Origin: Vulcanimicrobiota bacterium
Lineage (GTDB): Bacteria; Vulcanimicrobiota; Vulcanimicrobiia; Vulcanimicrobiales; Vulcanimicrobiaceae
Assembly: GCA_003135555.1 (NCBI GenBank)
Contig: PLCF01000085.1
Span: 1-64,000, forward strand
DNA length: 64,000 bases
Direction: 5' to 3'
Below are positions 4,836-64,000 of this stretch, one piece after another. Position numbers and translations under genes: made by a program. The notes beneath the pieces were generated by a model, which was given only the letters and a program-made list of their open reading frames with translations, was not told where the DNA came from and made no database searches. Every line of letters starts with the position of its first letter. The stretch's first letter is position 1.

Positions 4836-6365
4836 TCAGCGCGGTGCGACACCGGCCTCTCGCCAGACGAGCGCGATGAGCGCAGCTAGTGCTTGCGCGA
4901 TCTCTTCAGCGGTCGGAACGAACTCCGAGCGCTCTTGTTTGTCGATCGTGAGCAGGCCGAGCGGCCGTCCCCGTTCTTGAAGGTAGATGGGGACGCACAT
5001 GACGGCGCCGAACTTCGGCGCTCCGCCGATCTCGACGAAGCCCGGGACCGATCTCGCGTCGGCGATATTCCACAACCGTCCCTCGAGAAAGGCCTGCCCC
5101 GCGAGGCCCTCACCGGGGCGGAACGCCTTCGTCCTCGTCACCTCGTCCGTGATCTCGTTGGAATGGAAGAACCGAAGCAGGTTGGCCTTAGCGTCGAAGA
5201 GCCACACCGCCAGGCGGACATTCTCCGGAATGGGCTGGACGAGCTCCGCGTCCGTGGGTTTGACGACGGTCGCTCCCAGCCACAGGCGTGCTTCACCGAG
5301 ACGGTCGCGCACAAAGTTGTACACGAGCACCTTGCGAGCATCGGGGTCCGCCGCCGGCGCATAGAGGGCGTAGAAGATCGCCAGTCCCTGAGTCCAGTTC
5401 TGCATCAGATATGCCAGGTTCTCTGCGGTTTCCGTCAGCAGCGCCGTCGAGTTTTTCGTCTCGACACTGAGCTCGAGCTCGGCGTTGAAGATCTTCAGTT
5501 TGAGAATCCGCGGCAAGAAGAAGGCGACGATGAACAGTAGGAGCCAGGCTTGGGTCAGGCCGTCGGCGACCGGATACTGCTCGTCCTTCTTCAGCGCGAC
5601 GGGGAACGCTCGCAACGTTGCGCCCACGATGCCGAGCCACCCGAGCAGGATCTGAACCACGATCACGCGTTTGAGCCCGCGTCGCCACAAGTACCGGATC
5701 ACCCATCCGAAGGCGACGGCCTCTGCGACGAGCAGCGACAGTAAGAGGAGCCAACGCCGTGAAATTTGCCACCAAGCATTGGCGCCCGCGCAACACGGCG
5801 GCGGGGACGGTGAAGGCGATGCCACCGCTCGGTTCACGGTCACGTCGACGATCACGGTGCCGTTGATCTCGGTCCAACTCACGGTCGCACCGAGCTGTTC
5901 GGCGACGGCACGCAGCGGGACGACGACGTAGCCGCGGAACACTTCGGGCGGTACGCTGAGCGAGACTTTCTTGCCATCGAAGATCGCGCGGCGCTTGTCG
6001 ACGGTCAGCAAGAGCCGGTGTCCGCGTCCGGCGATCGTGATCGTGCGTGCATGAGGATCGTAACGAGCCGTCGCGGAGAGGTAGCTCAGCATGGTTCGCA
6101 TCGGCGACAGGACCTCGCCGCCGCGGACCAGGGGAGCCAAGACGCGGTAGCCCTTCACGTACACCGGCGAGCCCGGAACCTCCGAGCCCATGAAGACGAT
6201 GGTGACGCTGGGCGGGTTGCTCGGTGCTGCGACGGCGCCGGCCGGCGCAAGAAATGCCAGGAGCAGCCAAAGCGGCAGCGCCAGGAGCCGAGACCGACCC
6301 TCCACCTCACGCATCCTGACGCCGGGTCTTCGGTGGCTCGAGGAGCTTACCTTGGTGGGCGCCAC
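4836..6365 (-). CDS. Membrane protein: copper-amine-oxidase N-terminal (stalk) domain + TM helices + C-terminal GAF domain; start uncertain
   Basis: VVVPLRAVAEQLGATVSW stalk motif; hydrophobic stretches; GEGLAGQAF...VMCVPI...LGLLTID GAF motif. Confidence 0.8.
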   Translation of the reverse strand: MAPTKVSSSSHRRPGVRMREVEGRSRLLALPLWLLLAFLAPAGAVAAPSNPPSVTIVFMGSEVPGSPVYVKGYRVLAPLVRGGEVLSPMRTMLSYLSATARYDPHARTITIAGRGHRLLLTVDKRRAIFDGKKVSLSVPPEVFRGYVVVPLRAVAEQLGATVSWTEINGTVIVDVTVNRAVASPSPSPPPCCAGANAWWQISRRWLLLLSLLVAEAVAFGWVIRYLWRRGLKRVIVVQILLGWLGIVGATLRAFPVALKKDEQYPVADGLTQAWLLLFIVAFFLPRILKLKIFNAELELSVETKNSTALLTETAENLAYLMQNWTQGLAIFYALYAPAADPDARKVLVYNFVRDRLGEARLWLGATVVKPTDAELVQPIPENVRLAVWLFDAKANLLRFFHSNEITDEVTRTKAFRPGEGLAGQAFLEGRLWNIADARSVPGFVEIGGAPKFGAVMCVPIYLQERGRPLGLLTIDKQERSEFVPTAEEIAQALAALIALVWREAGVAPR

Positions 6366-50793: not shown

Positions 50794-51194
50794 ACGCGGG
50801 GCTGCACCGGTTCGTCGACAAGAAGCGCGTTCGGGAGGCGATCGTTCGGGCCGAAGAAGCGACGGCTGCACCGATCGCGGTTTCGATCGTCCCGCACGTC
50901 CCGGGCGACGTTCATGCTGCGGCGCTGCGTGCTCTCCATCGACGTGGTCTGTCCCGCGCGCCCGATCGCAATGCCGTGCATTTCTTCGTCGTCCCGTCGC
51001 GGCGCGAATTTGCGGTCGTCGGCGACGCGGGGGCCCACGAACGGCTCGGGCAAGACGTGTGGAATAGCGTGGCCGCGACGGTCGAGAAGCATTTTCGCCT
51101 GGGCGATCCGACCGCCGGCTTAGTTGCAGGGATCGAAGAAGTGGGCCGCCATTTGGCACGGCACTTCCCGCGCCAGCCGCCCTCCTCGCGCTAG
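50787..51194 (+). CDS. TPM-domain protein
   Basis: AIVRAEEAT; RNAVHFFV; FAVVGDAG; LARHFP; typical lemA operon partner. Confidence 0.85.
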   Translation: MVNAGLHRFVDKKRVREAIVRAEEATAAPIAVSIVPHVPGDVHAAALRALHRRGLSRAPDRNAVHFFVVPSRREFAVVGDAGAHERLGQDVWNSVAATVEKHFRLGDPTAGLVAGIEEVGRHLARHFPRQPPSSR

Positions 51195-51230
51195 AAGTAC
51201 ACGATCAGCGGCTAGCGCCTTCGGCGAAGC

Positions 51231-51659
51231 TTAGGCCGGCTGGGCCGCGGGCGGCTTGAGCGCGGTGCGGTAGCCCGCATAGACGGCGATCGCATAGAAC
51301 AGCACGTCCATGATGTTGAAGTCGGCGCGCAGCGCGTCTACGGCGAATGCGGGCCGGCGTGCTAACGCGAGCAGCACGACGGCGATCGGATAGTGCTCGT
51401 GCTGCGCGATCGTGACGCCCACGGCGCCCAGATTGCCGAGCACGCAACCCAAGAACGCGACAACGCCGGCGATGACGCCGTCGGCGCGTTCGCGCCCGCC
51501 GCTGAGCGTGCGCATCCCGAGGCCGGCCAAAAAGCCGACGCCCAGCGCCATGTAACCGATCTGATAGCTGGTCGCCGCGGTGATGGCGGCCCAGGCGATC
51601 GCGCCGACGATCGCGCCGGCGATTGCGGCGAGCGTGCCGGCCAGGAGTTTGGGGCTCAT
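51231..51659 (-). CDS. Small integral membrane protein
   Basis: Hydrophobic; YQIGYMALGVG; DVLFYAIAVYAGYR. Confidence 0.75.
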   Translation of the reverse strand: MSPKLLAGTLAAIAGAIVGAIAWAAITAATSYQIGYMALGVGFLAGLGMRTLSGGRERADGVIAGVVAFLGCVLGNLGAVGVTIAQHEHYPIAVVLLALARRPAFAVDALRADFNIMDVLFYAIAVYAGYRTALKPPAAQPA

Positions 51660-51719
51660 GAGGGTCTTTTCGAACGGTTGCTCTGCCGGCCCTTCCCAGC
51701 GTGCGGGTGACCTGAGCGG

Positions 51720-53120
51720 CTACGTCGTTGCCGGAACGGGCGCGTTGTCCTCGAGCAGCGCCGTGAGCTTCTTGCGACGCCAAAAACCGTAGTAGTAGAT
51801 CGTCTGGAAGATCAAGCCGCAGCAGAACGCGACGGGATAGGCCACCCACACGCCGCGCAAGCCGTATTTCGGCGCGAGCGCGTAGGCGACCGGGACCTCG
51901 ATCGCCCAGATGGCGATGATCGAGAGCAGCGTCGGCCACACCACGGTGCCGCTCGAGCGCATCAAGCCCGAGAGCACGCTGGTGGTTCCGAAGACCGCGT
52001 AGCTCCACAGCGTGATCGCGAGCAAGTCGTGCGCCGTCGCGATGACCTTGGCGTCGGTGACGAACAGGGTGAGGATCGCGTCGTTGAAGACGTAGACGAG
52101 CCCGATGAGGGCGCCGCAGATCACCCAGTTCAAGCTGATCCCGGCCCGGGCGATGCGCCGCAAGCGGTCGAAGCGCTTGGCCCCGATCGACTGCGCGCCG
52201 AAAATCGAGGATGCGATCCCGATCGAGATCGCCGGGAACTGCACGTACGACACGATCTGGTTCACCGCACCGTACGCCGCGGTCGCCGACGAGCCGAAGC
52301 GGTTGACCAGCGAGATGACGGCGATCTCGGCCAGCGATACCATGACCATTTGCAGGCCGGCGGGGATCCCGATGCGCACCAGCGCCGCCAACAGCTTTGG
52401 TTCGATGTTCATGTGGCGTACGATCGACATGTCCAGCGCGAGCGGGTTCTTCTCGGCCGCCAAGGCGATGAGCAGGTAGGCGAGACCGAAGACATTGGCC
52501 ACGATGTTGCCGACCGCCGCGCTCACGATCCCGAGCTGTGGCAGCCCGAACCAGCCGCGAATGAGCGCCGGCGTCAGGACGAGGATCAGTGCGGTGCTGA
52601 CGATGAGCGACAGGAACGGCGTCCGCGAGTCGCCGGTGCCGCGGACGAACGTCGTGTAGGCGAGGTAGACGAAGAGCAGCGGCAGCGCCAAGAACGTGAC
52701 GTGCGCGTAGGCGAGCGCATCGTCGAAGACGTCCAAGGGCGTGCCGATCAGGTGCAGCAGCGGCGTCAGAAAGAACCAGCTCGCCGCGCCGATCACCGCG
52801 CCCGCGACGAGCGCGACGGCGAGCGTCGTGCCGGCGACCGCCTTGAGCCGCTCCTCGTTGTGGGCGCCATAGGCTTGCCCGATCAGCACCGTGCTGCCGC
52901 TCGCGATCCCGATGAAGAACGCGATCATGAAGAAGAGGATCGGGAAAAGCGACGACGCGGCCGCGAGCGCGCCGACCCCGATGAGCCGCCCCAGGTAGAT
53001 GCTGTTGAGCGTCGCCGACGCCGACTGCAAAATGTTACTGAGCATCAGCGGGACGAGGAAGACCAGCATCGCCTGCCAGATCGGCCGGGAGTCGTCGAGG
53101 GCGAGGCGGCGCTGCTGCAT
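51720..53120 (-). CDS. MATE family efflux transporter
   Basis: PLMLSNILQ; RGTGDSRTP; RIGIPAGLQ; many TM segments. Confidence 0.93.
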   Translation of the reverse strand: MQQRRLALDDSRPIWQAMLVFLVPLMLSNILQSASATLNSIYLGRLIGVGALAAASSLFPILFFMIAFFIGIASGSTVLIGQAYGAHNEERLKAVAGTTLAVALVAGAVIGAASWFFLTPLLHLIGTPLDVFDDALAYAHVTFLALPLLFVYLAYTTFVRGTGDSRTPFLSLIVSTALILVLTPALIRGWFGLPQLGIVSAAVGNIVANVFGLAYLLIALAAEKNPLALDMSIVRHMNIEPKLLAALVRIGIPAGLQMVMVSLAEIAVISLVNRFGSSATAAYGAVNQIVSYVQFPAISIGIASSIFGAQSIGAKRFDRLRRIARAGISLNWVICGALIGLVYVFNDAILTLFVTDAKVIATAHDLLAITLWSYAVFGTTSVLSGLMRSSGTVVWPTLLSIIAIWAIEVPVAYALAPKYGLRGVWVAYPVAFCCGLIFQTIYYYGFWRRKKLTALLEDNAPVPATT

Positions 53121-53182
53121 CCGGGACAGTGTGCCCCATCCGGGGACACCTCTCCCGCGCGGCGAAACCACGTCCGCGCGGC

Positions 53183-53254
53183 GGGCGATTAGCTCAGCGG
53201 GAGAGCAGCTCCTTTACACGGAGAAGGTCGGCGGTTCGAATCCGTCATCGCCCA
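53183..53254 (+). tRNA. tRNA-Val (UAC); CCA not fully encoded
   Basis: GGGCGAT/ATCGCCC acceptor stem; CTCC-TT-TAC-AC-GGAG; GGTTCGAATCC. Confidence 0.95.
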
Positions 53255-53387
53255 CATCCGGCATCCGTCCTTGTCACATTGCGACACCCATACATCCGAA
53301 CATCCGAGTCGCAGACATGCGGCCATGCCGATAGGCGTGACATGCGGATATGCGGGCATGCGCACGTCGCGACATTGCGACATGAGT
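53254..53387. repeat. Degenerate 8-bp-period tandem repeat (consensus ~ACATSCGR) abutting the tRNA-Val 3' end
   Basis: acattgcg acacccat acatccga acatccga ... acatgcgg ccatgccg ... acatgcgg atatgcgg gcatgcgc acgtcgcg acattgcg acatgagt. Confidence 0.8.
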
Positions 53388-53446
53388 TTCATCTTGACGG
53401 CGTAACGGGCGCACATGCGCACCGATGTAAATGGCGCTGGCCTTTT

Positions 53447-54121
53447 CTATTTGCTCACTAGGACTCTCGTGAGGTCGAAGAAGCTGTCAGATGGAGCGCC
53501 GCCCGGATACGTCTGTCGCTCCTCGCCTTTTAAGCGCATCTCGGTGATGATGCCGTTCTGGATGGTAACCGCACCGTGTGAACGTCGTCTGATGGTTCCG
53601 CTCACCATCTGCGTTTCGACCTGCCCCATTTGCGACCACGATCCGGCGAACGACACGTCCAGGACGCACCGACGACTCTTCTCGTCGACGCTCGTCACAA
53701 CGACCTGGACTGTTCCCCGATCCCCGAACGTGCTCTGCACCACCGCACCAGACCACTTCGCACCCACCGAAAGGACCGCTGGCGGAGTGCCGAACATTTG
53801 CGCAGTGTAGCCTAACGGAGCGATGCCTTCCGTAACCGGGCCGTCGCCGGAAAGCAGCGTGAGCGTGTCGGTATTCTCGCGGAACTCCCGCGTAGTCTTG
53901 TGCCCTTCCGTGACTGCGTCGACCGAAAAGCGCAAGTTCGGTTGACTGTCGATTGGCTGCGGGAGAATTCTAACCGTCGTGTTGCTTACAATTGTGTGAT
54001 CGAACGGACCCGTGATCCGGCGCCTCGTTTGGAACTGCAGCACTTGGTTAGGTGCGACCTGCGGTACCAGCATCGTCGACGGTGTCGCAAGAGCGAAGAC
54101 GACTGCAGCAAGTCCGAGCAT
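53447..54121 (-). CDS. Secreted beta-strand-rich hypothetical protein
   Basis: N-terminal hydrophobic signal; GGAGAG RBS; LSVGAKWS motif. Confidence 0.65.
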   Translation of the reverse strand: MLGLAAVVFALATPSTMLVPQVAPNQVLQFQTRRRITGPFDHTIVSNTTVRILPQPIDSQPNLRFSVDAVTEGHKTTREFRENTDTLTLLSGDGPVTEGIAPLGYTAQMFGTPPAVLSVGAKWSGAVVQSTFGDRGTVQVVVTSVDEKSRRCVLDVSFAGSWSQMGQVETQMVSGTIRRRSHGAVTIQNGIITEMRLKGEERQTYPGGAPSDSFFDLTRVLVSK

Positions 54122-54182
54122 GCTAAGACAACTCTCCGTGAGACGGCAATGGGACTTGTGTCAAGTACGGACGCCACGAGAC

Positions 54183-54211
54183 GGGACCTCGGCGTTCGGA
54201 GCCGAGGTCCC
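54183..54211. terminator. 11-bp GC hairpin just downstream of the peptide gene (mRNA stabiliser or attenuator)
   Basis: GGGACCTCGGC-GTTCGGA-GCCGAGGTCCC; no T tract. Confidence 0.65.
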
Positions 54212-54217
54212 CGAGCC

Positions 54218-54445
54218 TCAGTTGCAACCGGGTGTGCAGTTGATGGTGTACGAGCAGTCCGCATACATCGTTTGCCTGCACGTCCAGCATTGGCCCGCAT
54301 CGTCCGTGTAGGTGTAGTTGTGAACGAACGGCCTCGTCTTGCAGCCGGTGCCACCGTCACACTGGGCCGACGCGGGTTGCGATAAGGCGAAGGCGCCAAA
54401 AGCAATCCCAAGGGCCAGGAACGATTTCAGAAAGTAGGACTTCAT
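54218..54445 (-). CDS. Secreted Cys-rich peptide (75 aa; 48-aa mature part with 7 Cys)
   Basis: RBS AAGGGTGA; MKSYFLKSFLALGIAFGAFALSQPASA|QCDGGTGCKTRPFVHNYTYTDDAGQCWTCRQTMYADCSYTINCTPGCN. Confidence 0.78.
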   Translation of the reverse strand: MKSYFLKSFLALGIAFGAFALSQPASAQCDGGTGCKTRPFVHNYTYTDDAGQCWTCRQTMYADCSYTINCTPGCN

Positions 54446-54668
54446 ACACTCACCCTTAATAGAGGCGCCTAGGAGGCGCTCGCAAGCTTGCGTCGTAGCC
54501 AATAGTCGCCGCGACGATGGCCAGATTGTGCCTTAATGAGCCAGTCCCTGCTTGCTTTCCCATAGGGAAAAACCGCGCGATGAGCTAACGGCGGGCTAAA
54601 ATTGTTCGAAACTGGCTCCAAGGAGTCGATTTCCGAAACGGTTACCCAAAAACGCTTAGGGTGAGGCG

Positions 54669-57062
54669 ATGAGGCCGATGTTCGCGAGCGCATGCGTCGA
54701 TTGGCTGATGTGTCGGCGGTGGCGCGCAGGCTTGGCACTCCTGCTCGCGGCGGTGTTTTGCGCGTCCGCGCTCGAAGTTGCGCGTGCTGCGCGAGGTTTG
54801 GTTGACGTACGTGTCCTCGTACGAGATGGTGCGACCGGTAAGCCGATTGCCGGTGCACTGATTCGCTTCGAGGCCAAGACCCGGAAGCTGCTCGGGCGCG
54901 CGGACCTCGACGGCGAGGCCCGATTTGTCAGCGTGCCGGCCGGCGACTACGATCTCCACGTCACCGCGCAGGACTTTCAAGATGCGCTCGTCGTCGCCCG
55001 CGTTGACGGCGAAGCGGACTTGACGTTGACGGTCGCGCTGAGAGCCGGATTGCCGCAGATCGGTTCGGTTTCCGCTCGTCGCGACACCGCCGTAGTCACG
55101 GTGTCGCGAGATGCTGCCTCCGCACGCCTGTTTCCGGATTTTGCCGATGTGCTCAACCGACTGGCCGACGCCTCGATTTCGGTTGACCAGTACGGGCGAC
55201 TTGGCGCCGTTTCGTTCGCAGGCAAGGACGCGTCGCTCTCCACGGTCACATTTGACGGCGTCGATCTCTCCGACCCAGTAGCCCGACACGCGATCGACCC
55301 CGATCTGATACAATCTGCCAGGGAAAGCGCGGCGTCGGCGACTCTGGACCTGTTCACGCTTGGGCCGACCCCATGGACCCAGTACGTCGCGGACGATGTA
55401 CTCAGCGGATATCACGGCGCGCGCACGAAGTCAACAGTCCAAACCACCGTCGGGAATGTCGGCGTCGTTGGCGAGTACGCATCGAGCTCGCAGCGAAGCG
55501 CGTTGTACGGCGCGCGCTATTTGGATTCCAGCGGGCTCGACTATGTTCACCGAGGTCGTTTCGCGAGCGATTCGGTGTTGCTGAAGGTGACTGCGCCTCT
55601 CGCGCAACGCGTCACGGCGGAGACGGAGTTTCTGTCCACGTCGTCACGGCAGCAGCCGTCCAGTCCGTATTTTTCTGGAGCGCTTCCAGCGGGAAGCGGC
55701 CCCGGGACCTTCAGTGATTCTTCCTCCACGATCGCGAGGGTCGGAATAACGGCAAATCCGGGCCACTTCTTGGTTCAATCGGGGCTTTCCGTGGTCAACA
55801 CGAACAATGTCACGAACGAACTGGCGCGATACAGCGCAGGGCAGCCCGACCCTCTGTACGCGCAAGTCCGTGGAAGACAAGTGCAGGCGAGCCTCGGCGT
55901 CGTCGACCTCGTGTCCGCTCGCGAAACGCTGAATCTGAATCTCTCCAGCATTGCGAACGACAACCACTTCACTACCGTTGTCCCGCGGTTTCAGCTAGCA
56001 TCACTCGATACTCGTGACTACACGCGCACGACGCGGCTTTCGATCCGTGACGCGCGCAGCTTCTCGTCAGCGCAGCGCCTCCTCTTCGGATTCGACGAGA
56101 GCTTCGACAATCACGGTAACGCGGGTCTGACCGCGACGGCTTCGTTCGACGTCCGAGTCGGCTCGGACGACTTCCGCCTTGGAGTCTCGCACGGAAGGGA
56201 CCTCGCAAGCCGGAGTTCGGCCTCAGCTTTCAGTGATCCACAATCCGCGTCGTACGATTGCGAGAGCGGAACGATCATTGTGGCCGGGCCCAATCAGCAG
56301 CCAACCGCTCCACGGGCCTCGGATCTGCGCCTTGATTGGGTTCACAAAGGTCGTCGTTCAGAGCTCAATGTCGAGGTTGCGCAAACGCTCTACAGCGACG
56401 TCTCCCTGTCGAGCGCCTACGTTCCGATCTCGTCCATTCCGGTCTCGATAGTACCTGCGGGATATGTCGCATCCCTGCTTGGCGCCTTCACCCAGATCGG
56501 CGGTTGCCCAAGCAGCCTTGCGGCACCAAGTCTGTACGTCACCGAGAACATCAGCGGCGCGCAGACGCGTTATGTCACGGCTCGAGTTATCGCTACCACA
56601 CACGTAGGCAGCCGCCTACAGGTGCAGTGGGCGGCGGAAGTGCAACGCGCGACTCTGGTCAGCGCGCCAGCGGTCTTGCTTGGAATCGGGTCGCCATACG
56701 TGCCAGGGGGCCAACTACCAGGTGTGCCGCTGTTTCACGCGACCGCGACGGCCGATCTGCCTTGGCAGAATCGTCGCACGGAGAGCATTCTGAGCTTAGG
56801 CTTTGTTAGCGGCAACAACGAACGCCATCTACCGGCTTATGTACAACTCACTGCCGGGGTCGCACACCGTTTGAGCGAGAACGTAGATGCGTTCCTCATT
56901 TTCGCGAACGCCGGGCACGCCTACGTGGGCCTATTCAACTCCCCGTTGTATGCCCAAGGGGTCCCGACAATCGGCGGCGGAACCCTACGGACCTTCGCCG
57001 CACCCCTCGTGCAGCCGAACGTGCACTTGAACGTCCGAGTAAAGGTCCGCCACGGCGACTGA
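54669..57062 (+). CDS. TonB-dependent-receptor-like outer-membrane protein with carboxypeptidase-regulatory-like N-terminal domain
   Basis: VRDGATGKPIAGA...VPAGDYDLHVTA; plug-like DVLNRL...TVTFDGV; beta-barrel-like C-terminus (NNERHLPAY). Confidence 0.72.
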   Translation: MRPMFASACVDWLMCRRWRAGLALLLAAVFCASALEVARAARGLVDVRVLVRDGATGKPIAGALIRFEAKTRKLLGRADLDGEARFVSVPAGDYDLHVTAQDFQDALVVARVDGEADLTLTVALRAGLPQIGSVSARRDTAVVTVSRDAASARLFPDFADVLNRLADASISVDQYGRLGAVSFAGKDASLSTVTFDGVDLSDPVARHAIDPDLIQSARESAASATLDLFTLGPTPWTQYVADDVLSGYHGARTKSTVQTTVGNVGVVGEYASSSQRSALYGARYLDSSGLDYVHRGRFASDSVLLKVTAPLAQRVTAETEFLSTSSRQQPSSPYFSGALPAGSGPGTFSDSSSTIARVGITANPGHFLVQSGLSVVNTNNVTNELARYSAGQPDPLYAQVRGRQVQASLGVVDLVSARETLNLNLSSIANDNHFTTVVPRFQLASLDTRDYTRTTRLSIRDARSFSSAQRLLFGFDESFDNHGNAGLTATASFDVRVGSDDFRLGVSHGRDLASRSSASAFSDPQSASYDCESGTIIVAGPNQQPTAPRASDLRLDWVHKGRRSELNVEVAQTLYSDVSLSSAYVPISSIPVSIVPAGYVASLLGAFTQIGGCPSSLAAPSLYVTENISGAQTRYVTARVIATTHVGSRLQVQWAAEVQRATLVSAPAVLLGIGSPYVPGGQLPGVPLFHATATADLPWQNRRTESILSLGFVSGNNERHLPAYVQLTAGVAHRLSENVDAFLIFANAGHAYVGLFNSPLYAQGVPTIGGGTLRTFAAPLVQPNVHLNVRVKVRHGD

Positions 57063-57175
57063 TTGCAGCAAACTCAGAGCATCTTCTTCCGGGGCTTGCG
57101 CAGGTCCGGTTGCCTGGTCGTCCCAGTTCGTCGCTTGGCGGCGAATAGCTGAGCCTGAAACGTTAAGTCCCAGCG

Positions 57176-57243
57176 GGTTACCGCGATTTCGCTGTCGACT
57201 CGGCGGGTTAGGATGATTTGACGGTTATTGTGATAGACCAACA
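57176..57243. repeat. Junction/end motif copy 1
   Basis: GGTTACCGCGATTTCG-N14-GGTTAGGATGATTTGACGGTTATTGTGATAGACCAACA. Confidence 0.88.
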
Positions 57244-57495
57244 TCCGGCACATGTTGCTATTGCGGCATGTGAGACCGGAGACGATGGGACGGGACTGAC
57301 CACGAACGTCCCTCCATTGCTGCATCCGACGCCGGCATACGTGGCGGAATAGCCGCCATGGGACTTGCTCTGCGCGCTAACGTGGTGCAGACATCCGTGA
57401 GAGTTTCCAAATAGAAATGAAGCCGAATCCAGGAGGGCCAGGCCGCGCCAAGGCGGATTCGAGGGAAGGCCTCGCCCGTTTTTGAATCACACGCC

Positions 57496-58410
57496 ATGCG
57501 CCGATGCTTTGTTCATGTTGGCACGCATAAGACCGGAACGACGTCCGTACAGGCCTTCCTGGCGATGAATCACAGAGCGTTGCTTTCGGCCGGGATTCTC
57601 GCGCCGTTGACCGGGCGCCCGAGTCACTTACCCGACTACCCAAACTTCGGTCATCACAACATTGCATGGGAATTGAACGAGGACCCTCGTTTCCGGCCCG
57701 AGTCGGGAACGTTGAACGAGCTCGTATCGGAGATAGCGCGTGTCGCGTCGCACACAGTAGTTTTGAGTTCGGAGGATTTTGAATACCTTCATGCAAAGCC
57801 GGCGGCCTTGCATGAGCTGGCTCGCGCGTTGTGCGATATTGGTTACGGAATTGAATTCATCGCGTACCTGCGTCCACAAGGTGAATACGCGCAATCGCTA
57901 TATCTTACGTTACTCCTGTTCGGCCTTAACCTGAGTTTTTCGGACTTTCTCGATATAGTACTTCAGCGTGGCGCCTTTACGTTTTCCGAACGTTGGATCT
58001 TCCAATTCGACTACACAAAACTGCTCGATGCTCTTGCTGATGTGGCCGGGCCTTCCGGCATGTCCGTGCGGCGCTATCGCCAGGACGCTGAAGCTAGTCT
58101 CCTACTCGCCGAGTTCGCTTCAATTGTGCAGACCCCAAGCGGAAAGGCGGCGTTCGACCAATTTAACCTGCCCGACCGAATGAATCGTAGAATATCGCTG
58201 GAAACCGCTTGCGAACTCTTAGTAGATAACCAAGATCCGTCGCACCATCGCGAAATACGGGAGGCGGCATCGCCGGGTTCATTTTGGAAAGCTGAGGACG
58301 GAGCCCGACTTCTCGCGCGATTTAGCGCGGAAAATGATGATCTCGCCAAAAAATATGCACTCCACCTTCCAGTCCTTGGTTCTGCCTTTAGCAATGAGCG
58401 TGCGCCTTAG
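57496..58410 (+). CDS. Sulfotransferase-like P-loop protein
   Basis: HVGTHKTGTTSVQ; VLSSEDF; YLRPQ...SLY; N-terminal pattern typical of sulfotransferase-fold proteins. Confidence 0.72.
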   Translation: MRRCFVHVGTHKTGTTSVQAFLAMNHRALLSAGILAPLTGRPSHLPDYPNFGHHNIAWELNEDPRFRPESGTLNELVSEIARVASHTVVLSSEDFEYLHAKPAALHELARALCDIGYGIEFIAYLRPQGEYAQSLYLTLLLFGLNLSFSDFLDIVLQRGAFTFSERWIFQFDYTKLLDALADVAGPSGMSVRRYRQDAEASLLLAEFASIVQTPSGKAAFDQFNLPDRMNRRISLETACELLVDNQDPSHHREIREAASPGSFWKAEDGARLLARFSAENDDLAKKYALHLPVLGSAFSNERAP

Positions 58411-59147
58411 CGAGGTTCTTTCCTCCAGTATACGGCGGTCCAATCAACGGTCTCTAGCGGCTCGCGAATCGCGTTTCTGTCCCGATAGTCCTCGACCGCT
58501 TTCGCGCACGAAGGAATCGCGCCGTAATCGTCGACGATACAATACCCTCCGGCACTCACTTTAGGGTACAGTGATTCGAGCGCAATCATCGTTGACTCAT
58601 ACATGTCTCCGTCTAGCCGCAGAAGCGCAAGTTGGCCCATTGGCGCGTCTGGAAGGGTGTCGCGAAACCAGCCTTCGAGAAACCGAACCCGCTCGTCGAG
58701 CAGGCCGTACCGATCAAAAGCCCGTTGCACCTCACCTAGCGGCACAGCAAGTGCTTCAAAGGTCTGCAGCGAATCGCCGGCATCCTCGGGATAACGAATC
58801 GCGTCGGGCGCCGGCAGTCCTGCAAAGGAATCTGCGACCCAAACATACCGGTCGGAAATGCCGTACGCTTGTAAAATGCCGCGCATGAGAATTGCCGCCC
58901 CACCTCGCCAAACGCCGGTCTCGATAAAGTCACCAGGGACTCCCCGACGCAGAGTATCTCGAGCGCAGAATTCCAAGTTATCGAGGCGTTTTGGGCCAAT
59001 CATGGTGTGAGCGCGAACGGGCCAGTGCGGGCCCCTAGGCGTACCGGTTACTAAGACTTCATGGGCGTCATAAATGATATCGAGCAACGATCGTTTCAGG
59101 AGATCGATGTAGAGGGTTACGAGTCGTTCATCGTCGGTGTAGCCCAT
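58407..59147 (-). CDS. TylF/MycF/NovP-family O-methyltransferase
   Basis: AHTMIG; VPGDFIETGVWRGG; VADSFAGLP; GWFRDTLP; LRLDGDMYEST; IVDDY. Confidence 0.93.
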   Translation of the reverse strand: MGYTDDERLVTLYIDLLKRSLLDIIYDAHEVLVTGTPRGPHWPVRAHTMIGPKRLDNLEFCARDTLRRGVPGDFIETGVWRGGAAILMRGILQAYGISDRYVWVADSFAGLPAPDAIRYPEDAGDSLQTFEALAVPLGEVQRAFDRYGLLDERVRFLEGWFRDTLPDAPMGQLALLRLDGDMYESTMIALESLYPKVSAGGYCIVDDYGAIPSCAKAVEDYRDRNAIREPLETVDWTAVYWRKEPR

Positions 59148-59269
59148 GGAGTCCCCGCGTATCGGTTCGCGTGAAATAGTGGATCACAATTCTGCGTTGG
59201 CCCCGAAGAGGGGTGCTGCCATCCGCCCTGCAGAGGTCAGCCTCATTGATTGTGGCCCACGATCGGGCA

Positions 59270-59337
59270 GGTTAGCGCGATTTCGCCAACGAGCATCTCG
59301 GTTAGGGTGATTTGCGGATTATTGTGATAGACCAACA
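59270..59337. repeat. Junction/end motif copy 2
   Basis: GGTTAGCGCGATTTCG-N14-GGTTAGGGTGATTTGCGGATTATTGTGATAGACCAACA. Confidence 0.88.
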
Positions 59338-59820
59338 TTACGTATCCGAGCATGCACATGCTTTATCCGGCGCGACGCAAACCTGGAAACCATCCGTCGC
59401 GGCGTCGAACTACGAACAGCCTCGTCCCTGAACGCTTTACCGTCGGCGAAATGCGGCTGACGGCGCGCTAGGGGCGACCACCGCAAGGCCGTAATTCGTT
59501 CTATCCAGAAAACTTTTTCGATGCTGCTCCAGTTCGTAATGGGCACGCTAGCCCGTTGAGGCAACGCGCACTTCAGGGTGCAACTATCAGGTCTTCGAAA
59601 ACAGCAGACGTGCGCGCTGCTTTATCACGATAACCCTCGTCGCGGTGACTTCGGGCGCTCATGTCGTGCGCCCGCGAAGTCGAACGCTCCTTAGCCGAAG
59701 GCCATTCGATGCACTTTCTGCATGAGGGCCGCATTGTCGAGCTACCGGCTTGCGCCGCGGGTCACCCGGCGGGCTGAGCTAAAGGCTCGACGAGCCGTCG
59801 GGCCGGTTTGGACACCGTTG

Positions 59821-59889
59821 GGTTCGGGCGATTTCGAGCTCGGCCCGCAGGGTTCGGGGGATTTGACCCCTTATCGTGATAGACCAACA
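59821..59889. repeat. Junction/end motif copy 3
   Basis: GGTTCGGGCGATTTCG-N14-GGTTCGGGGGATTTGACCCCTTATCGTGATAGACCAACA. Confidence 0.88.
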
Positions 59890-59932
59890 TCCGAGTTGCG
59901 CAGTGCGATCTTAGAGGGGTGTAGATACGCTT

Positions 59933-61417
59933 ATGGGGTACGCCGGGCCGATCACCAACATCATCGTCGTGATGCTCGAGAACCGCTCGTACGACAACGT
60001 TCTGGGGATGCTGTACGCGCCCGGGAACCCCGCACCGTACGACAGCGCGCCGGCCGGCCAGCTGACGCTGGACGGCCTCCCACCGGACGCGTCCAACGTG
60101 GACCCCGTCACGGGTCTCGCCCTTAACGCTTGGGGTGGTCCCGGCGACTCGCCGACGATCCCCGAGACCGACCCTGGCGAACCGTTCTACGACATGGCGC
60201 AACAGATCCAGGGCGCCGCATTCAAAGAGGACGACAACCCATATTCGTCGAGTGCGACCGCGCCCATGGGCGGCTTCGTGGCGAACTACCGCGCGCAGTT
60301 CGCGGGCGGGCAGACGGCTAGCTCCGCCGGGATCGGGAACGTGCAGAACGCCGTACGCGACGTCATGCATGTCTACACGCCCTGGCTCATGCCGGTAACG
60401 GCATACCTCGCGCGCAACTTCATGGTCTGCGATGCGTGGTTTGCTTCGGCGCCGACGCAGACGTTCGCGAACCGGATGTTCGCGCACTGCGCCACTCCCG
60501 GCGGGTCGAGTACCGAAAGCTTTCTCGACGACTCGCAGTATCTGTTGACCTGGGCGGCAGGCGGGTTTGGGGCGAACAACGTGTTCGCCCAACTCGACGC
60601 CGTGCTCGGCGTGGGTGCTAAGCCGAACTGGAAGGTCTACTTTCACGACTACTCGATCAGCATGGGCCTAGTAAAGTACGTCAACGCGGCCGCCACGAGT
60701 GCGAGCAACATCAATGTTGCCAGCTACGATCAGTCGGACTATCCCGATACGTCGTCCCTGTGGCCCGTCGGCGCGTGGCCCAACACGTTTCTGGCCGACC
60801 TCGCGAACGGGACGTCACCGCCGTACTCGTTCGTCGAGCCGCGCTACAGCAACAGCTATCAGGATCTGCTCGATTCGTCGAAGCACGCCGTTCCCGGCCT
60901 GGCACCGAATTCGAATCATCCGGGGCTGGCGAACTTCACGACGAACGCGCTCCCGAACAACCCGCCGATCAGCGTCGTCAACGGTGAGCTGTTTCTGCTC
61001 GGCCTGTACTCCGCACTGCTCGCGAGTCCGCTGTGGAAAAGCTCGCTGCTCGTCATCCTCTACGACGAGCACGGCGGATTGTACGACCACGTGTATCCGC
61101 CGAGCGTCGCGGCGGCGGCGAGCAGCGCGATCCCGCCCGCGTCGTCTTCCTATGGAAACTTCGCCTTCAACATCTACGGTGGGCGCGTGCCCGCGATCAT
61201 CGTCTCGCCGTTCGTGACGGCCGGGAGCAGGCTGGTCTCGTCGGGTGCCCCGTTCGACCACACGTCGATCATCCGAACCGTCTGGGACTGCTTCAATCTG
61301 GACCAAGGCACGCACGGCGCCGCTTCCATCAACGCGTGGGATCTAAACGCGCCATCGATTCTGACCAAGTGCTCCACGACGATCGTCAACAACCCGCCAA
61401 AACCGCCATCGCTCTGA
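59933..61417 (+). CDS. Phosphoesterase/phospholipase C family (alkaline phosphatase superfamily)
   Basis: IIVVMLENRSYDNVLG; CDAWFAS...TFANR; YDEHGGLYDHV; GGRVPAIIVSPF; FDHTSII. Confidence 0.92.
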   Translation: MGYAGPITNIIVVMLENRSYDNVLGMLYAPGNPAPYDSAPAGQLTLDGLPPDASNVDPVTGLALNAWGGPGDSPTIPETDPGEPFYDMAQQIQGAAFKEDDNPYSSSATAPMGGFVANYRAQFAGGQTASSAGIGNVQNAVRDVMHVYTPWLMPVTAYLARNFMVCDAWFASAPTQTFANRMFAHCATPGGSSTESFLDDSQYLLTWAAGGFGANNVFAQLDAVLGVGAKPNWKVYFHDYSISMGLVKYVNAAATSASNINVASYDQSDYPDTSSLWPVGAWPNTFLADLANGTSPPYSFVEPRYSNSYQDLLDSSKHAVPGLAPNSNHPGLANFTTNALPNNPPISVVNGELFLLGLYSALLASPLWKSSLLVILYDEHGGLYDHVYPPSVAAAASSAIPPASSSYGNFAFNIYGGRVPAIIVSPFVTAGSRLVSSGAPFDHTSIIRTVWDCFNLDQGTHGAASINAWDLNAPSILTKCSTTIVNNPPKPPSL

Positions 61418-61479
61418 CGCCGCACCGGAGGCTCCACCGGTTTCGATCATCGCAACGATTTGCGGGGGCCGCAGCTCGA

Positions 61480-62031
61480 CTACGTTTTCTTGCGCGTATA
61501 TTTGATCTCCACGCCCTTCCACTCCGGGACCGTGCCGAAGCTCAAGTAGCTCGACGCAATCATCGCGTTGGCCGAGATGGGTCCGATGACGGTGCGCTGG
61601 TGCCACGTGTCGGCGCCGATCGGGTAGTCCGCCTTCAGCTCGAACTGCTTCGTCGTCGCGTCGTAGCTGCCGGTCTCGGCGATGCGACTGGTGTTGGTGG
61701 TCGCGATGCGCGTAGCTTCGTACTGGTGCGTAGACGTATTGAAGCCGGTCCACGCGAGGGTCGTGAACGGCGTGCCGTTCAGCACGCCTTCGATCTTCTC
61801 TTCGACGAAGAGCCCGTCGAACAGCGGCCGGATCGTCGACGTGCCCTTGGTCAAAAGACCCGGGCCGCCGGGCCGAAACCAGAACGTCATTTCGACGTCC
61901 CAGGTGCCGACCATCGCGGCGAGGCGCGCATGCTCGGGGTCGGCCGGTGGGGCGGCGTTGGCGGTCGTCGCCGTCGCGATCGCGGTCGCGGCGACGAGTG
62001 CGGCAATCAACCAGACACGTGGACGGTTCAT
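61480..62031 (-). CDS. DUF1579-like secreted protein
   Basis: Signal peptide; PEHARLAAMVGTWDV; GLFVEE; EIKYTR. Confidence 0.78.
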   Translation of the reverse strand: MNRPRVWLIAALVAATAIATATTANAAPPADPEHARLAAMVGTWDVEMTFWFRPGGPGLLTKGTSTIRPLFDGLFVEEKIEGVLNGTPFTTLAWTGFNTSTHQYEATRIATTNTSRIAETGSYDATTKQFELKADYPIGADTWHQRTVIGPISANAMIASSYLSFGTVPEWKGVEIKYTRKKT

Positions 62032-62157
62032 CGGACAGCAACTCCTCAGGCCACACGAGCATGGGCGTCGACAAAGCTCTCGACGTACGCGTTTTCAACC
62101 GGCGTGCCCTGGCGCAGGGGCAAGGGAACCAGCGGCGTCCTCGATTAAGAGCCTGCC

Positions 62158-63933
62158 ATGAGGCGCGTTGCCTGGCGTCCGGTGCTGCTGGCGATTTGCG
62201 CGCTCGTGGCGCTCGTCCAAGTAGCATCCGTGCTCGACGTGATCGGGATGGGCGGCGCGCCGCCGTGGTGGGGCCGGCTGGGAGCTAGGATCGATGGCGC
62301 CGCGGGACCGGCGCATGTCGTGGTTCGCTCCGTCGAACCCGGGGGCCCGGCTGACCGTGCGGGCCTTCGTCGAGGCGATCTCATCGACATGCGCGCAAAC
62401 TCAGTTGTCGACCGTTTGGCGACGTTGAGTTTAGAGGCGCCGCTCAATGGGCGGCCGCTCGTCCTCGCGGTGCACCGGGGCTCGCTGCAAAAAGAGATTT
62501 CGCTCGTACCGGAGCCGGTTCCGGCTCAGCGATATTGGGACTTCTTGCTCGGTTCGCTGGGGAGCCTCTGGCTGCTGCTCTTTGCAGCTCTGATCGCGTG
62601 GCGCCGCGCCGACGTTCCCCAGATGCGACTGCTCTCGACGTGGTTAACCGTTTTTGTTCTCGTCGGCGCGACGACCGGTTTTGCGGCACCCTGGTCGTGG
62701 CCGTATGTCCTCTTCGGCGTCTTGAGCAGCCTAGCTTTGGCGTTGGTGCTCGCGCTGTGGGCGGCGTTCGCGAGCTGCTTCGCCCAGCCGCTCTCGCGGC
62801 CCCGTCGCATCGCGCAATGGCTGTGTTACGTGTTCGTCGCGATCTCGATCGCGAACTCGGGATTTTGGATTGCCGAAACGATCGACCCGCAGTTCCATCC
62901 GCTCCCGCCGACCCATGGGTTTGGGTGGCTCATTGCGTTTTTGGGCGCACTTGTGATGGCAGTGGTCTGCGGGGTGCTCGCAATTGCCGCATCCCGCGGA
63001 GTGGAGCGCCAGCGAGCGGTGTGGACGATCCTACCGCTAGCGGCCATCTATTGCTACTACACGGTGTTTGCGATTGCAACCTCGTCGTCGTCGTCATCCG
63101 CCGATTCCGATTTCTGGAGCATCGCGGCCAACCTGGTGATCCTCGTCGCTCCGCTCGCGCTGACGTACGCTGCACTCAGCCGCCGGCTGATCGACGTCGG
63201 TTTCTTCCTGAACCGCGCCGCCGTCTTCACCGTCGTTTCGACGATCGTGATCGGGACATTCGTGCTGGTCGAATGGGCTGCGAGCGAGTGGTTCGCACGT
63301 ACCGGTCGCACCGCCGGTACCGTCATCAGCATGGGCGTGGCGCTGGGCCTTGGATTCTCGATGCGCTACATCCACCGCTACGCCGATCGCTTCGTCGACC
63401 GCGTCTTCTTTCGAAAGCGGCATGAGGACGAAGCCGCGCTACGCCGCTTCGCGCACGAATCTTCCTATATCACCGACCGCTCCGTCTTGCTGCAGCGGGC
63501 GGTTCGTGAGGTCAAGGCACACACCGACGCCGCCGATGCGACGATCCTGGTCCAAAATGGAGAAGCGGTGTTTACGTCGGTCGCACAAACCGGCGCTGCT
63601 CTCACGAGCGCTAACGAGAACGACCCCGGCATCCTAGCCCTGCGCGCTTGGCACAAGCCGGTCGACCTGGGGTCGCTCGAGGATTCAGTGCTGCGCGGCG
63701 AGTTCGCTTTTCCGATGGTTTCGCGCGGCACGCTCGTGGGGGTCCTCATCTGTGAGGCAAAGCGCAACGGCGAAAGCTACGCACCCGATGAATCGGCGGC
63801 ACTGCTTGCGCTCGCACACGGCGTAGGCACGGCACTCGACGTCCTTTCCGCTCAACAAGACCGCCCCAACGAAGTCGTGCTCCGCGAGCTAGCCGAATTG
63901 CGTGAGGACGTGAAACGGATGATGCACAAGTGA
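62158..63933 (+). CDS. Membrane sensor-like protein: PDZ + multiple TM + GAF, no output domain
   Basis: VEPGGPADRAGLRRGD (PDZ); RRLIDVGFFLNRA; FPMVSRGTLVGVL...GESYAPDE. Confidence 0.8.
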   Translation: MRRVAWRPVLLAICALVALVQVASVLDVIGMGGAPPWWGRLGARIDGAAGPAHVVVRSVEPGGPADRAGLRRGDLIDMRANSVVDRLATLSLEAPLNGRPLVLAVHRGSLQKEISLVPEPVPAQRYWDFLLGSLGSLWLLLFAALIAWRRADVPQMRLLSTWLTVFVLVGATTGFAAPWSWPYVLFGVLSSLALALVLALWAAFASCFAQPLSRPRRIAQWLCYVFVAISIANSGFWIAETIDPQFHPLPPTHGFGWLIAFLGALVMAVVCGVLAIAASRGVERQRAVWTILPLAAIYCYYTVFAIATSSSSSSADSDFWSIAANLVILVAPLALTYAALSRRLIDVGFFLNRAAVFTVVSTIVIGTFVLVEWAASEWFARTGRTAGTVISMGVALGLGFSMRYIHRYADRFVDRVFFRKRHEDEAALRRFAHESSYITDRSVLLQRAVREVKAHTDAADATILVQNGEAVFTSVAQTGAALTSANENDPGILALRAWHKPVDLGSLEDSVLRGEFAFPMVSRGTLVGVLICEAKRNGESYAPDESAALLALAHGVGTALDVLSAQQDRPNEVVLRELAELREDVKRMMHK

Positions 63934-64000
63934 GGCGAAGCCGCATCCGCGGGATGACCGCTCATACCGCGGTCGTCCAAGCTGAGGGATTCTCGACGAG

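Follow-up and report, generated by a model that had tools for sequence, protein, structure and literature searches.

The locus described here raises the question of why three direct repeats of about 68 bp, all of them on the minus strand, should follow one another in the chromosome of an uncultured peat bacterium from a genus of Eremiobacterota/WPS-2 ('Vulcanimicrobiota'). The repeats are located in the window, that is, the whole stretch of DNA analysed, which comprises the first 64 kb of a 285-kb contig of the genome coded G000. A sequence-only reading had assigned them to transposon ends of the Tn7/Tn5053/Mu type and had remarked in passing that integrase arm sites are also iterated; it is this side remark that proved the better reading. 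We consider it probable that the repeats are the element-side arms of attR-type attachment (att) junctions, belonging to site-specific integrative islands at a tRNA-Val gene.

The positions of the three copies are given below, the E values being those obtained with R1, a sequence-only model constructed from five copies; units 1 and 2 are islands of the array described further on.
57176-57243, minus strand: copy C, arm of unit 1, composed of box 3, box 2 and box 1 (the core half-site); E 6.2e-21
59270-59337, minus strand: copy B, arm of unit 2; E 1.9e-20
59821-59889, minus strand: copy A, the outermost arm; E 1.1e-19

The 19-mer TTATYGTGATAGACCAACA is present three times in the window (57225-57243, 59319-59337 and 59871-59889) and was absent from 100 shuffles, and the box word AAATCNNNNKAACC occurs six times, always within the three copies, compared to a shuffle mean of 0.07. 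In 3/3 copies box 3 follows box 2 at exactly 30 bp, and the 16 bp separating these boxes are equal in length and unrelated in sequence between copies; the spacing between boxes 1 and 2 varies by one base. Word counts, coordinates and alignment thus bear out the arrangement first described, in which three repeats of about 68 bp combine conserved boxes and a fixed spacing of boxes 2 and 3 with a free spacer sequence. Reading of the alignments showed box 1 to be the same motif as boxes 2 and 3, ATCAC-NN-TAAC(C), so that a copy amounts to one site repeated three times, at intervals of 20-21 and 30 bp. Box 1 comes close to a palindrome, in the manner of an operator, and a fourth box 1 in reversed orientation was found at 59623-59633, inside a partner-arm fragment at 59611-59663. 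The whole assembly of G000 (3.57 Mb, 98 contigs, 84% complete) contains these three copies and no more.

The alignment of 11 distal copies from nine sources indicated that conservation of the family begins at GGTCTATCAC, the bases outside it varying by genome (TGTTGG, TGTGG, TCTTGG, CATAG, ACGAG, TCTCG, ATATGG and GTCTGG among the 11 copies). In the window copies TGT falls within this variable junction stretch, and it is not conserved in the family, so that the 5'-TGT terminus and the 8-bp end, formerly proposed as its features, had to be abandoned. The proximal ends begin with (C/T)TGC.

The comparison of positions 51000-64000 with 44 genomes of the genus by BLAST gave a match to some part in 42/43 relatives (the genus-wide counts include the unpublished genome G032 as one row, and no claim depends on it). 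The widely conserved part consists of a MatE gene and tRNA-Val, and in most relatives the homology ends at about 53254-53260. The exact arm pattern was present in 3/348 genomes of the family, all of them of the window's genus. R1 gave 11 matches with E <= 0.015 in 7/44 genus genomes, and 11/11 are located on the contig carrying tRNA-Val, at most 22 kb downstream of it. The search with a model of the copies, which had been suggested for genome and phylum together with the sequence-only reading, thus tied all good matches in the genus to tRNA-Val islands. A pattern scan of genome contigs yielded eight loci, two of which are the records of G009 and G002; the other six, coming from unrelated, mostly gut or AT-rich metagenome-assembled genomes (MAGs), are taken as likely chance matches to the pattern.

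The bases following tRNA-Val were read in 27 genomes with the tRNA set on the plus strand. A conserved partner arm was found in 6/27 (G002, G009, G015, G017, G023 and G033); in this arm about 12 variable bases are followed by a GCTTTATCAC-NN-TAA half-site and two reversed boxes, to which a forward box some 90 bp further on is added in three of the six; unrelated sequence follows tRNA-Val in 19/27, and G000 itself shows neither a partner arm nor an inverted distal-type arm at its tRNA-Val. A partner-arm model, R2, seeded with five genus genomes and three metagenome loci, recovered its five genus seeds and two non-seeds, namely G009 and window positions 59611-59663 (E 4.3e-6). The genomes G002, G009, G015, G017 and G023 carry a distal arm as well as a partner arm about 12 bp after tRNA-Val. 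The five relatives with a distal arm being thus also provided with a partner arm, their islands are bounded, and measure 1.7, 2, 6.6, 9 and 21 kb. In G033 the proximal arm is present, and no distal arm was detected in the 13.6 kb to the contig end. Proximal-arm and distal-arm boxes share one absolute direction, and R2 positions 26-79 match the distal copies on the tRNA strand.

Some arms deviate from this scheme. A distal-type arm is located directly after tRNA-Val in G008 (G008:C106:806-883, locus L034), in an orientation opposite to that of all other genomes; it is about 75% identical, as judged by eye, to the distal arm of G017, and its spacer contains a GCGCGC palindrome. An integration, or an inversion, that set this arm the other way round could be the cause; the contig is too short to include the other end. 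A longer arm variant is found in G002 (L035 from 3746) and in the loci L065 (from 10033, minus strand) and L068 (from 512, minus strand), which share 120-175 bp of extra noncoding sequence inward of box 3 at 86-95% identity, after which the cargo diverges.

The bases outside each distal arm repeat that genome's own spacer between tRNA and partner half-site. This direct repeat amounts to 20/20 bp in G009, to about 13-20 bp with few mismatches in G002 and G015, to 8 bp in G023, to 6-7 bp in G017 and to 10 bp in the window. It includes the final bases of tRNA-Val and has a genome-specific sequence, while the flanking half-sites are conserved, which points to the overlap region of a conservative site-specific recombination and not to a fixed target duplication. 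tRNA-Val itself resembles the box-1 half-site in its last 11 bases, with agreement at 8/11 positions. By eye, half-sites of about 12 bp can be drawn around a variable stretch of about 7 bp in sites of the G009 type; the spacing in unit 1 of G000 is off by 3 bp.

Empty sites, in which the gene found elsewhere beside the distal arm comes straight after tRNA-Val, are present in three relatives. In G013 this is an Fpg/Nei gene corresponding to the distal flank of G015 (80% protein identity), a flank shared by G023; in G007 it is an orthologue (85%) of the G009 flank gene; and in G366 it is an orthologue of the G017 flank gene, with 88% identity over 35 residues at the locus edge. Moreover, in the metagenome contigs L066 and L068 a distal arm abuts a full partner arm, with half-site and reversed boxes, and these joins are the attP-like junction expected between tandem elements. 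On L066 there are, in addition, tRNA-Val with its partner arm and a 1.8-kb first unit.

It is at the junctions that ends of Tn7/Tn5053/Mu-like transposons, largely refuted and in our opinion highly improbable, can be weighed. The three window copies do begin with TGT and do contain iterated subterminal sites, and Tn7-like insertion is orientation-specific and takes place downstream of a conserved gene, as here. However, TGT is not conserved among the 11 copies; the boxes are direct at the two ends, where an inverted partner end had been foreseen; the repeats are genome-specific and 6-20 bp long in place of the 5-bp target duplication; attP-like junctions exist; and six-frame searches of five islands gave no match to PF00665, the rve domain of the DDE transposase that had been looked for. 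The more general part of the sequence-only reading holds good, in that spacers, flanks and cargo all differ and the repeats are recombination ends of independent, diverged elements and not a recent duplication, the binding of protein to them being predicted.

The organisation of the locus in the window, including the cargo genes, is as follows (open reading frame, ORF).
53183-53255, plus strand: tRNA-Val(TAC), the integration target, called by ARAGORN
53254-53263, plus strand: core copy 1, ACATCCGGCA, at the tRNA junction; the same 10 bases are present at 57241-57250
53254-57240, no strand: unit 1, an island of 3987 bp, polymorphic in presence or absence among peat strains
53264-53400, plus strand: left end of unit 1, with short iterated words in place of a canonical partner arm
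53447-54121, minus strand: cargo of unit 1, 224-aa ORF, no family match
54218-54502, minus strand: cargo of unit 1, small ORF, no family match
54669-57062, plus strand: cargo of unit 1, 797-aa CarboxypepD_reg protein (Pfam, NCBIfam and PHROGs scans)
57244-59337, no strand: unit 2, about 2.1 kb, ending with copy B
57496-58410, plus strand: cargo of unit 2, 304-aa ORF, no family match
58407-59147, minus strand: cargo of unit 2, TylF-family O-methyltransferase (Pfam, NCBIfam)
59611-59663, plus strand: decayed partner arm of the tRNA-proximal type, with a GCTTTATCACGATAAC half-site and one reversed box (R2 E 4.3e-6, non-seed)
59611-59889, no strand: remnant unit of about 280 bp, made up of the decayed partner arm and copy A
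59933-61417, plus strand: phosphoesterase-family gene, beginning past copy A

The array therefore reads, as laid out above, tRNA-Val, core, unit 1, core, unit 2, about 270 bp with a degenerate half-site between copy B and the remnant unit, remnant unit and chromosome. The last two bases of tRNA-Val open the 10-bp crossover core, and core copy 2, at 57241-57250, overlaps with copy C at the outer edge of the latter. The GC content is about 0.68 before the tRNA, 0.55-0.63 in unit 1 and lowest in unit 2 (0.53-0.57), and returns to 0.65-0.68 beyond copy A, the rise starting from about 59.8 kb. The earlier statement that no intact partner end is visible applies to units 1 and 2, which keep the distal arm only, and has to be amended for the remnant unit, where a decayed partner arm is preserved. 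Behind tRNA-Val, between 53264 and 53400, ACATCCG is iterated three times and GACATGCG and ACATTGCGACA twice each; these words may have been left behind by recurrent events or may serve to bind another protein.

Logan contigs of four peat metagenome runs were mapped onto window positions 52900-60600. In the runs X2 and X3, which come from other studies, one 8.6-kb contig each spans the whole array at about 99% identity. Behind 53313 these strains have one additional 8-bp GACATGCG unit, so that the number of units varies between strains; they were also seen to contain 1 + 5 extra bases (C; TCCGC) at 57240-57241, at the outer edge of copy C and inside the core. In the run X4 a contig of depth 36.7 joins position 53253 to 57241, 3987 bp being skipped and 10 letters (ACATCCGGCA) shared; copy C lies within the segment absent from this variant. 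In this run the skipped part is represented by contigs identical to the window, at a depth of 7-11, and the remaining part by a strain 93-98% identical, at a depth of 29-48. The joint and the depths together indicate a close strain from which unit 1 is missing with exact limits, namely the core at the end of the tRNA and the core on the outer side of copy C. Among the loose ends at the 3' end of tRNA-Val in the same runs, the canonical partner arm and an empty site of the G034 type were recognised, so that several states of the locus coexist in these peats.

The following course of events is proposed. The arm, read from the inside out, consists of two boxes 30 bp apart and of a third box doubling as the core-proximal half-site, and stops 4-8 bp short of a crossover core common to the 3'-end sequence of tRNA-Val. 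The boxes would be bound by the recombinase, for which a tyrosine integrase provided with an arm-binding domain is the probable candidate. Islands would be inserted by a conservative site-specific recombination of the island's own site with the one next to the tRNA, and each newcomer would displace the older islands outward, for which reason arms facing the same way would accumulate. The outcome in the window would be the three units of about 4.0 kb, about 2.1 kb and, as a remnant, about 0.28 kb. The position of the polymorphic and presumably newest unit beside the tRNA is what is expected if entry takes place at the tRNA-proximal site.

That the repeat might be a promoter or operator module, or a small RNA, placed before island genes appears very improbable. 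The TylF gene does begin 123 bp downstream of copy B, both being on one strand, and the near-palindromic box 1 resembles an operator; copy C, however, points towards the 3' end of a gene convergent with it, copy A and the phosphoesterase gene diverge, and regulation does not explain junction repeats, empty sites or the deletion joint. Searches of the region and two related loci against Rfam gave sub-threshold noise only, far below the gathering scores, and RNAalifold found 0 consensus pairs in 11 copies, the minus (repeat-reading) strand being folded. The earlier reading had named, as what would count against it, a conserved noncoding RNA or the lack of any link to mobile-element boundaries; Rfam and RNAalifold gave no signal of the former, and the link is present. 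The folding of single-stranded DNA was likewise no better than that of shuffles for both strands of the three copies (z from -1.04 to +0.74). The repeat as a tRNA or transfer-messenger RNA was also considered, and none was called.

Two tRNA-like features were noted besides. A fragment resembling the T-arm and 3' half of the acceptor of a tRNA, ending in CCA, is located inside the G009 island (L007:1900-1960, corresponding to G009:C221 at about 5080-5140); it does not derive from tRNA-Val, received no gene call from ARAGORN or Rfam, and possibly represents a tRNA end that was displaced when something else integrated. In G000:C83:49754-50222, near a contig end, six tRNA genes are crowded into about 470 bp, one of them with the anticodon CTA (tRNA-Pyl according to ARAGORN); the cluster could be the tRNA array of a mobile element or include a suppressor tRNA.

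The cargo of the islands is diverse and island-typical, and includes an RHS toxin, Imm11, nSTAND3, Hypoth_Ymh and TylF; an HNH_5 protein and a LuxR helix-turn-helix protein are also among the ORFs, and nothing phage-like was identified with Pfam, PHROGs and NCBIfam. A protein of 536-550 aa with a C-terminal LuxR/GerE helix-turn-helix is encoded both in G017 (L032:4360-5970) and in G023 (L030:8205-9857), with about 50% identity; its N-terminal 460 residues are without family match, and the two islands are otherwise different. Pfam, NCBIfam and PHROGs scans of the ORFs found no recombinase in unit 1, and no integrase was found in eight bounded units (0.28-21 kb) or in 10 kb of the L065 interior.

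A number of observations weigh against the interpretation of the repeats as att arms of integrative islands. Units 1 and 2 have no canonical partner arm at their tRNA-side ends, for which modular or decayed left ends are the only explanation that we can offer, and one that may apply. The shorter side of the X4 joint has 25 letters, below the 30 advised, and other organisms may yield such joints. No circular junction was found among the mapped metagenome contigs, which drop rare forms. In lambda-type sites core and arm motifs differ, and here a single motif is shared. The remaining points concern the enzyme. No recombinase was recognised with Pfam (38 + 15 island ORFs), PHROGs (35) or NCBIfam (10); six-frame searches for PF00589, PF00239 and PF00665 gave no match in the islands of G000, G002, G015, G017 and G023, matches being obtained only elsewhere; R1 detected no att-like site near 18 integrase-bearing loci; and no specialised integrase is common to the element-bearing genomes.

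Since no island encodes a recombinase, the islands are to be regarded as non-autonomous, with an enzyme acting in trans. The tyrosine integrase that had been considered as a possible neighbour of intact elements is present neither in nor beside the islands. Viral contigs gave 0 matches to the arm pattern and 0 to the core pattern, and scans of viral contigs, genomes and metagenomes (the last with a strict arm pattern) revealed no autonomous relative, only copies without an integrase. Completeness of the MAGs ranges from 65 to 99%, and binning often loses mobile elements.

The sole tyrosine recombinase common to G000, G002, G009 and G023 is a housekeeping Xer-like protein of the G000:C9 type, and the complete genome G020 and G007 each contain a single Xer-like gene, the only tyrosine recombinase found in them. 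This would suit elements of the IMEX kind (integrative mobile elements exploiting Xer) using the host enzyme at a pseudo-dif site at the 3' end of tRNA-Val. We nevertheless hold such use to be distinctly unlikely: the site is not at a terminus-type dif, no dif-like 11-6-11 palindrome was seen at the core, Xer is present in all genus genomes and the sites in only 7/44, and to our knowledge iterated arm boxes are not a feature of Xer substrates.

Two other enzymes of G000 were tried and set aside as the one acting in trans. The accessory Xer-like G000:C55 has orthologues in 13/44 genomes, and its presence in 5/8 element-bearing genomes vs 8/36 others amounts to a weak link in a tally of related and hence not independent genomes; it also appears to have its own site elsewhere. 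For the integrase G000:C69 no close orthologue exists in the remaining genomes that bear elements. The accessory gene (G000:C55:1-933, L069/L076) codes for a 301-aa Xer-like tyrosine recombinase with relatives in L072-L077, and a conserved dif-like palindrome, GATAAC-TGAGA-ATTATC/G, is located 20-30 bp past its stop codon. Directly after this palindrome the contig ends in G000, G002, G012 and G034, the DNA downstream differs between G015, G027 and G033, and the same 20 bases are found at a contig end behind an unrelated gene (G000:C77:4-23). Gene and palindrome resemble an integrase with its att core, from a mobile element of a separate kind, or else an insertion hotspot.

The absence of a recombinase from every unit, together with the lack of a partner arm in units 1 and 2, is also what an integron-like cassette platform would lead one to expect, in which a host recombinase encoded elsewhere inserts the units and tRNA-Val plays the part of attI. 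The sites indeed face the same way, one per unit and at its distal end, and the polymorphic unit is the one nearest tRNA-Val. Such a platform is nonetheless unlikely, given that neither single-strand folding nor consensus pairs are found in the sites, that most relatives have a two-armed site, that the conserved neighbour of tRNA-Val is MatE and no recombinase gene is fixed beside it, and that the sites occur in only 7/44 genus genomes.

The interpretation as att arms of tRNA-Val islands is thus preferred. A bolder form of it, rather doubtful to us though worth stating, is that accretion at tRNA-Val is an active and cassette-like process, in which enzyme-less units of 0.3-21 kb, with multi-box arms and with genes for defence, toxins, immunity and modification, are shuttled into and out of the tRNA-proximal site by a recombinase encoded elsewhere; this could be the enzyme of a rare helper element or of the host. 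If true, such accretion would be a functional analogue of the integron, operating on double-stranded, lambda-like sites in Eremiobacterota.

The results provide a defined family of att sites, with a core at the 3' end of tRNA-Val and an ATCAC-NN-TAAC box, for a phylum without genetic tools and with few described mobile elements. The tRNA-Val locus is a hotspot at which peat Eremiobacterota swap genes for defence, toxin/immunity and modification, and unit 1 is a direct natural example of the gain or loss of a 4-kb unit. The good conservation of the arms, though every unit seen is without an integrase, raises the question of which trans-acting enzyme moves them; if it is found, enzyme and sites could be a possible integration tool for the lineage. 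No description of this att family or of these islands was found in the literature on cis-mobilizable elements and accretion, which is a weak negative result confined to that literature.

The site may be compared first with lambda-type attP, which is likewise a composite of about 250-300 bp with boxes at helical-repeat spacings (here 20-21 and 30 bp) on both sides of a core that partly matches the bacterial target; unlike in lambda, the overlap sequence here differs from genome to genome. With the cassette arrays of integrons the locus shares one site per unit, placed at the distal end, a single orientation and the presumably newest unit at the entry site, but no attC-like hairpin and no R''/R' GTTRRRY core sites were seen, and neither IntI nor attI is present by the array (no PF00589 match on contig C58). 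Tn7-like ends resemble the arms in their iterated subterminal protein-binding sites, which here are predicted, and in an oriented insertion downstream of a conserved gene, and differ from them in the conserved TGT, inverted sites, 5-bp duplication and TnsB/rve gene, none of which was found.

The closest counterpart is offered by cis-mobilizable elements (CIMEs) which, as defined in section 2.3 of PMC5704250, keep attL and attR, have lost the genes for integration and transfer, and accrete in tandem at the same site. In the account given there of CIMEs and of the accretion of integrative and conjugative or mobilizable elements (ICEs, IMEs) at a tRNA 3' end, exemplified by the ICESt1/ICESt3 lineage, several elements are likewise found in tandem at one tRNA gene, the tandem junctions are attP-like and islands decay to small remnants. 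The possession of attL and attR without genes for integration or transfer, as that section has it, is found in the islands of G002, G009, G015, G017 and G023 and in the remnant at 59611-59889. Unlike the CIMEs of this account, these islands have no autonomous parent (ICE, IME or prophage) with the same sites in the collections searched, two units of the window keep the distal arm only, and the host belongs to an uncultured genus of Eremiobacterota. The tandem islands at ssrA in Dehalococcoides, as far as they are presented in PMC3146451, are similar in being site-specific for a single-copy small RNA gene and in carrying varied cargo. The islands at tRNA-Val are best regarded as CIME-like, non-autonomous elements accreted at one gene, a familiar kind of scar in an unfamiliar phylum.

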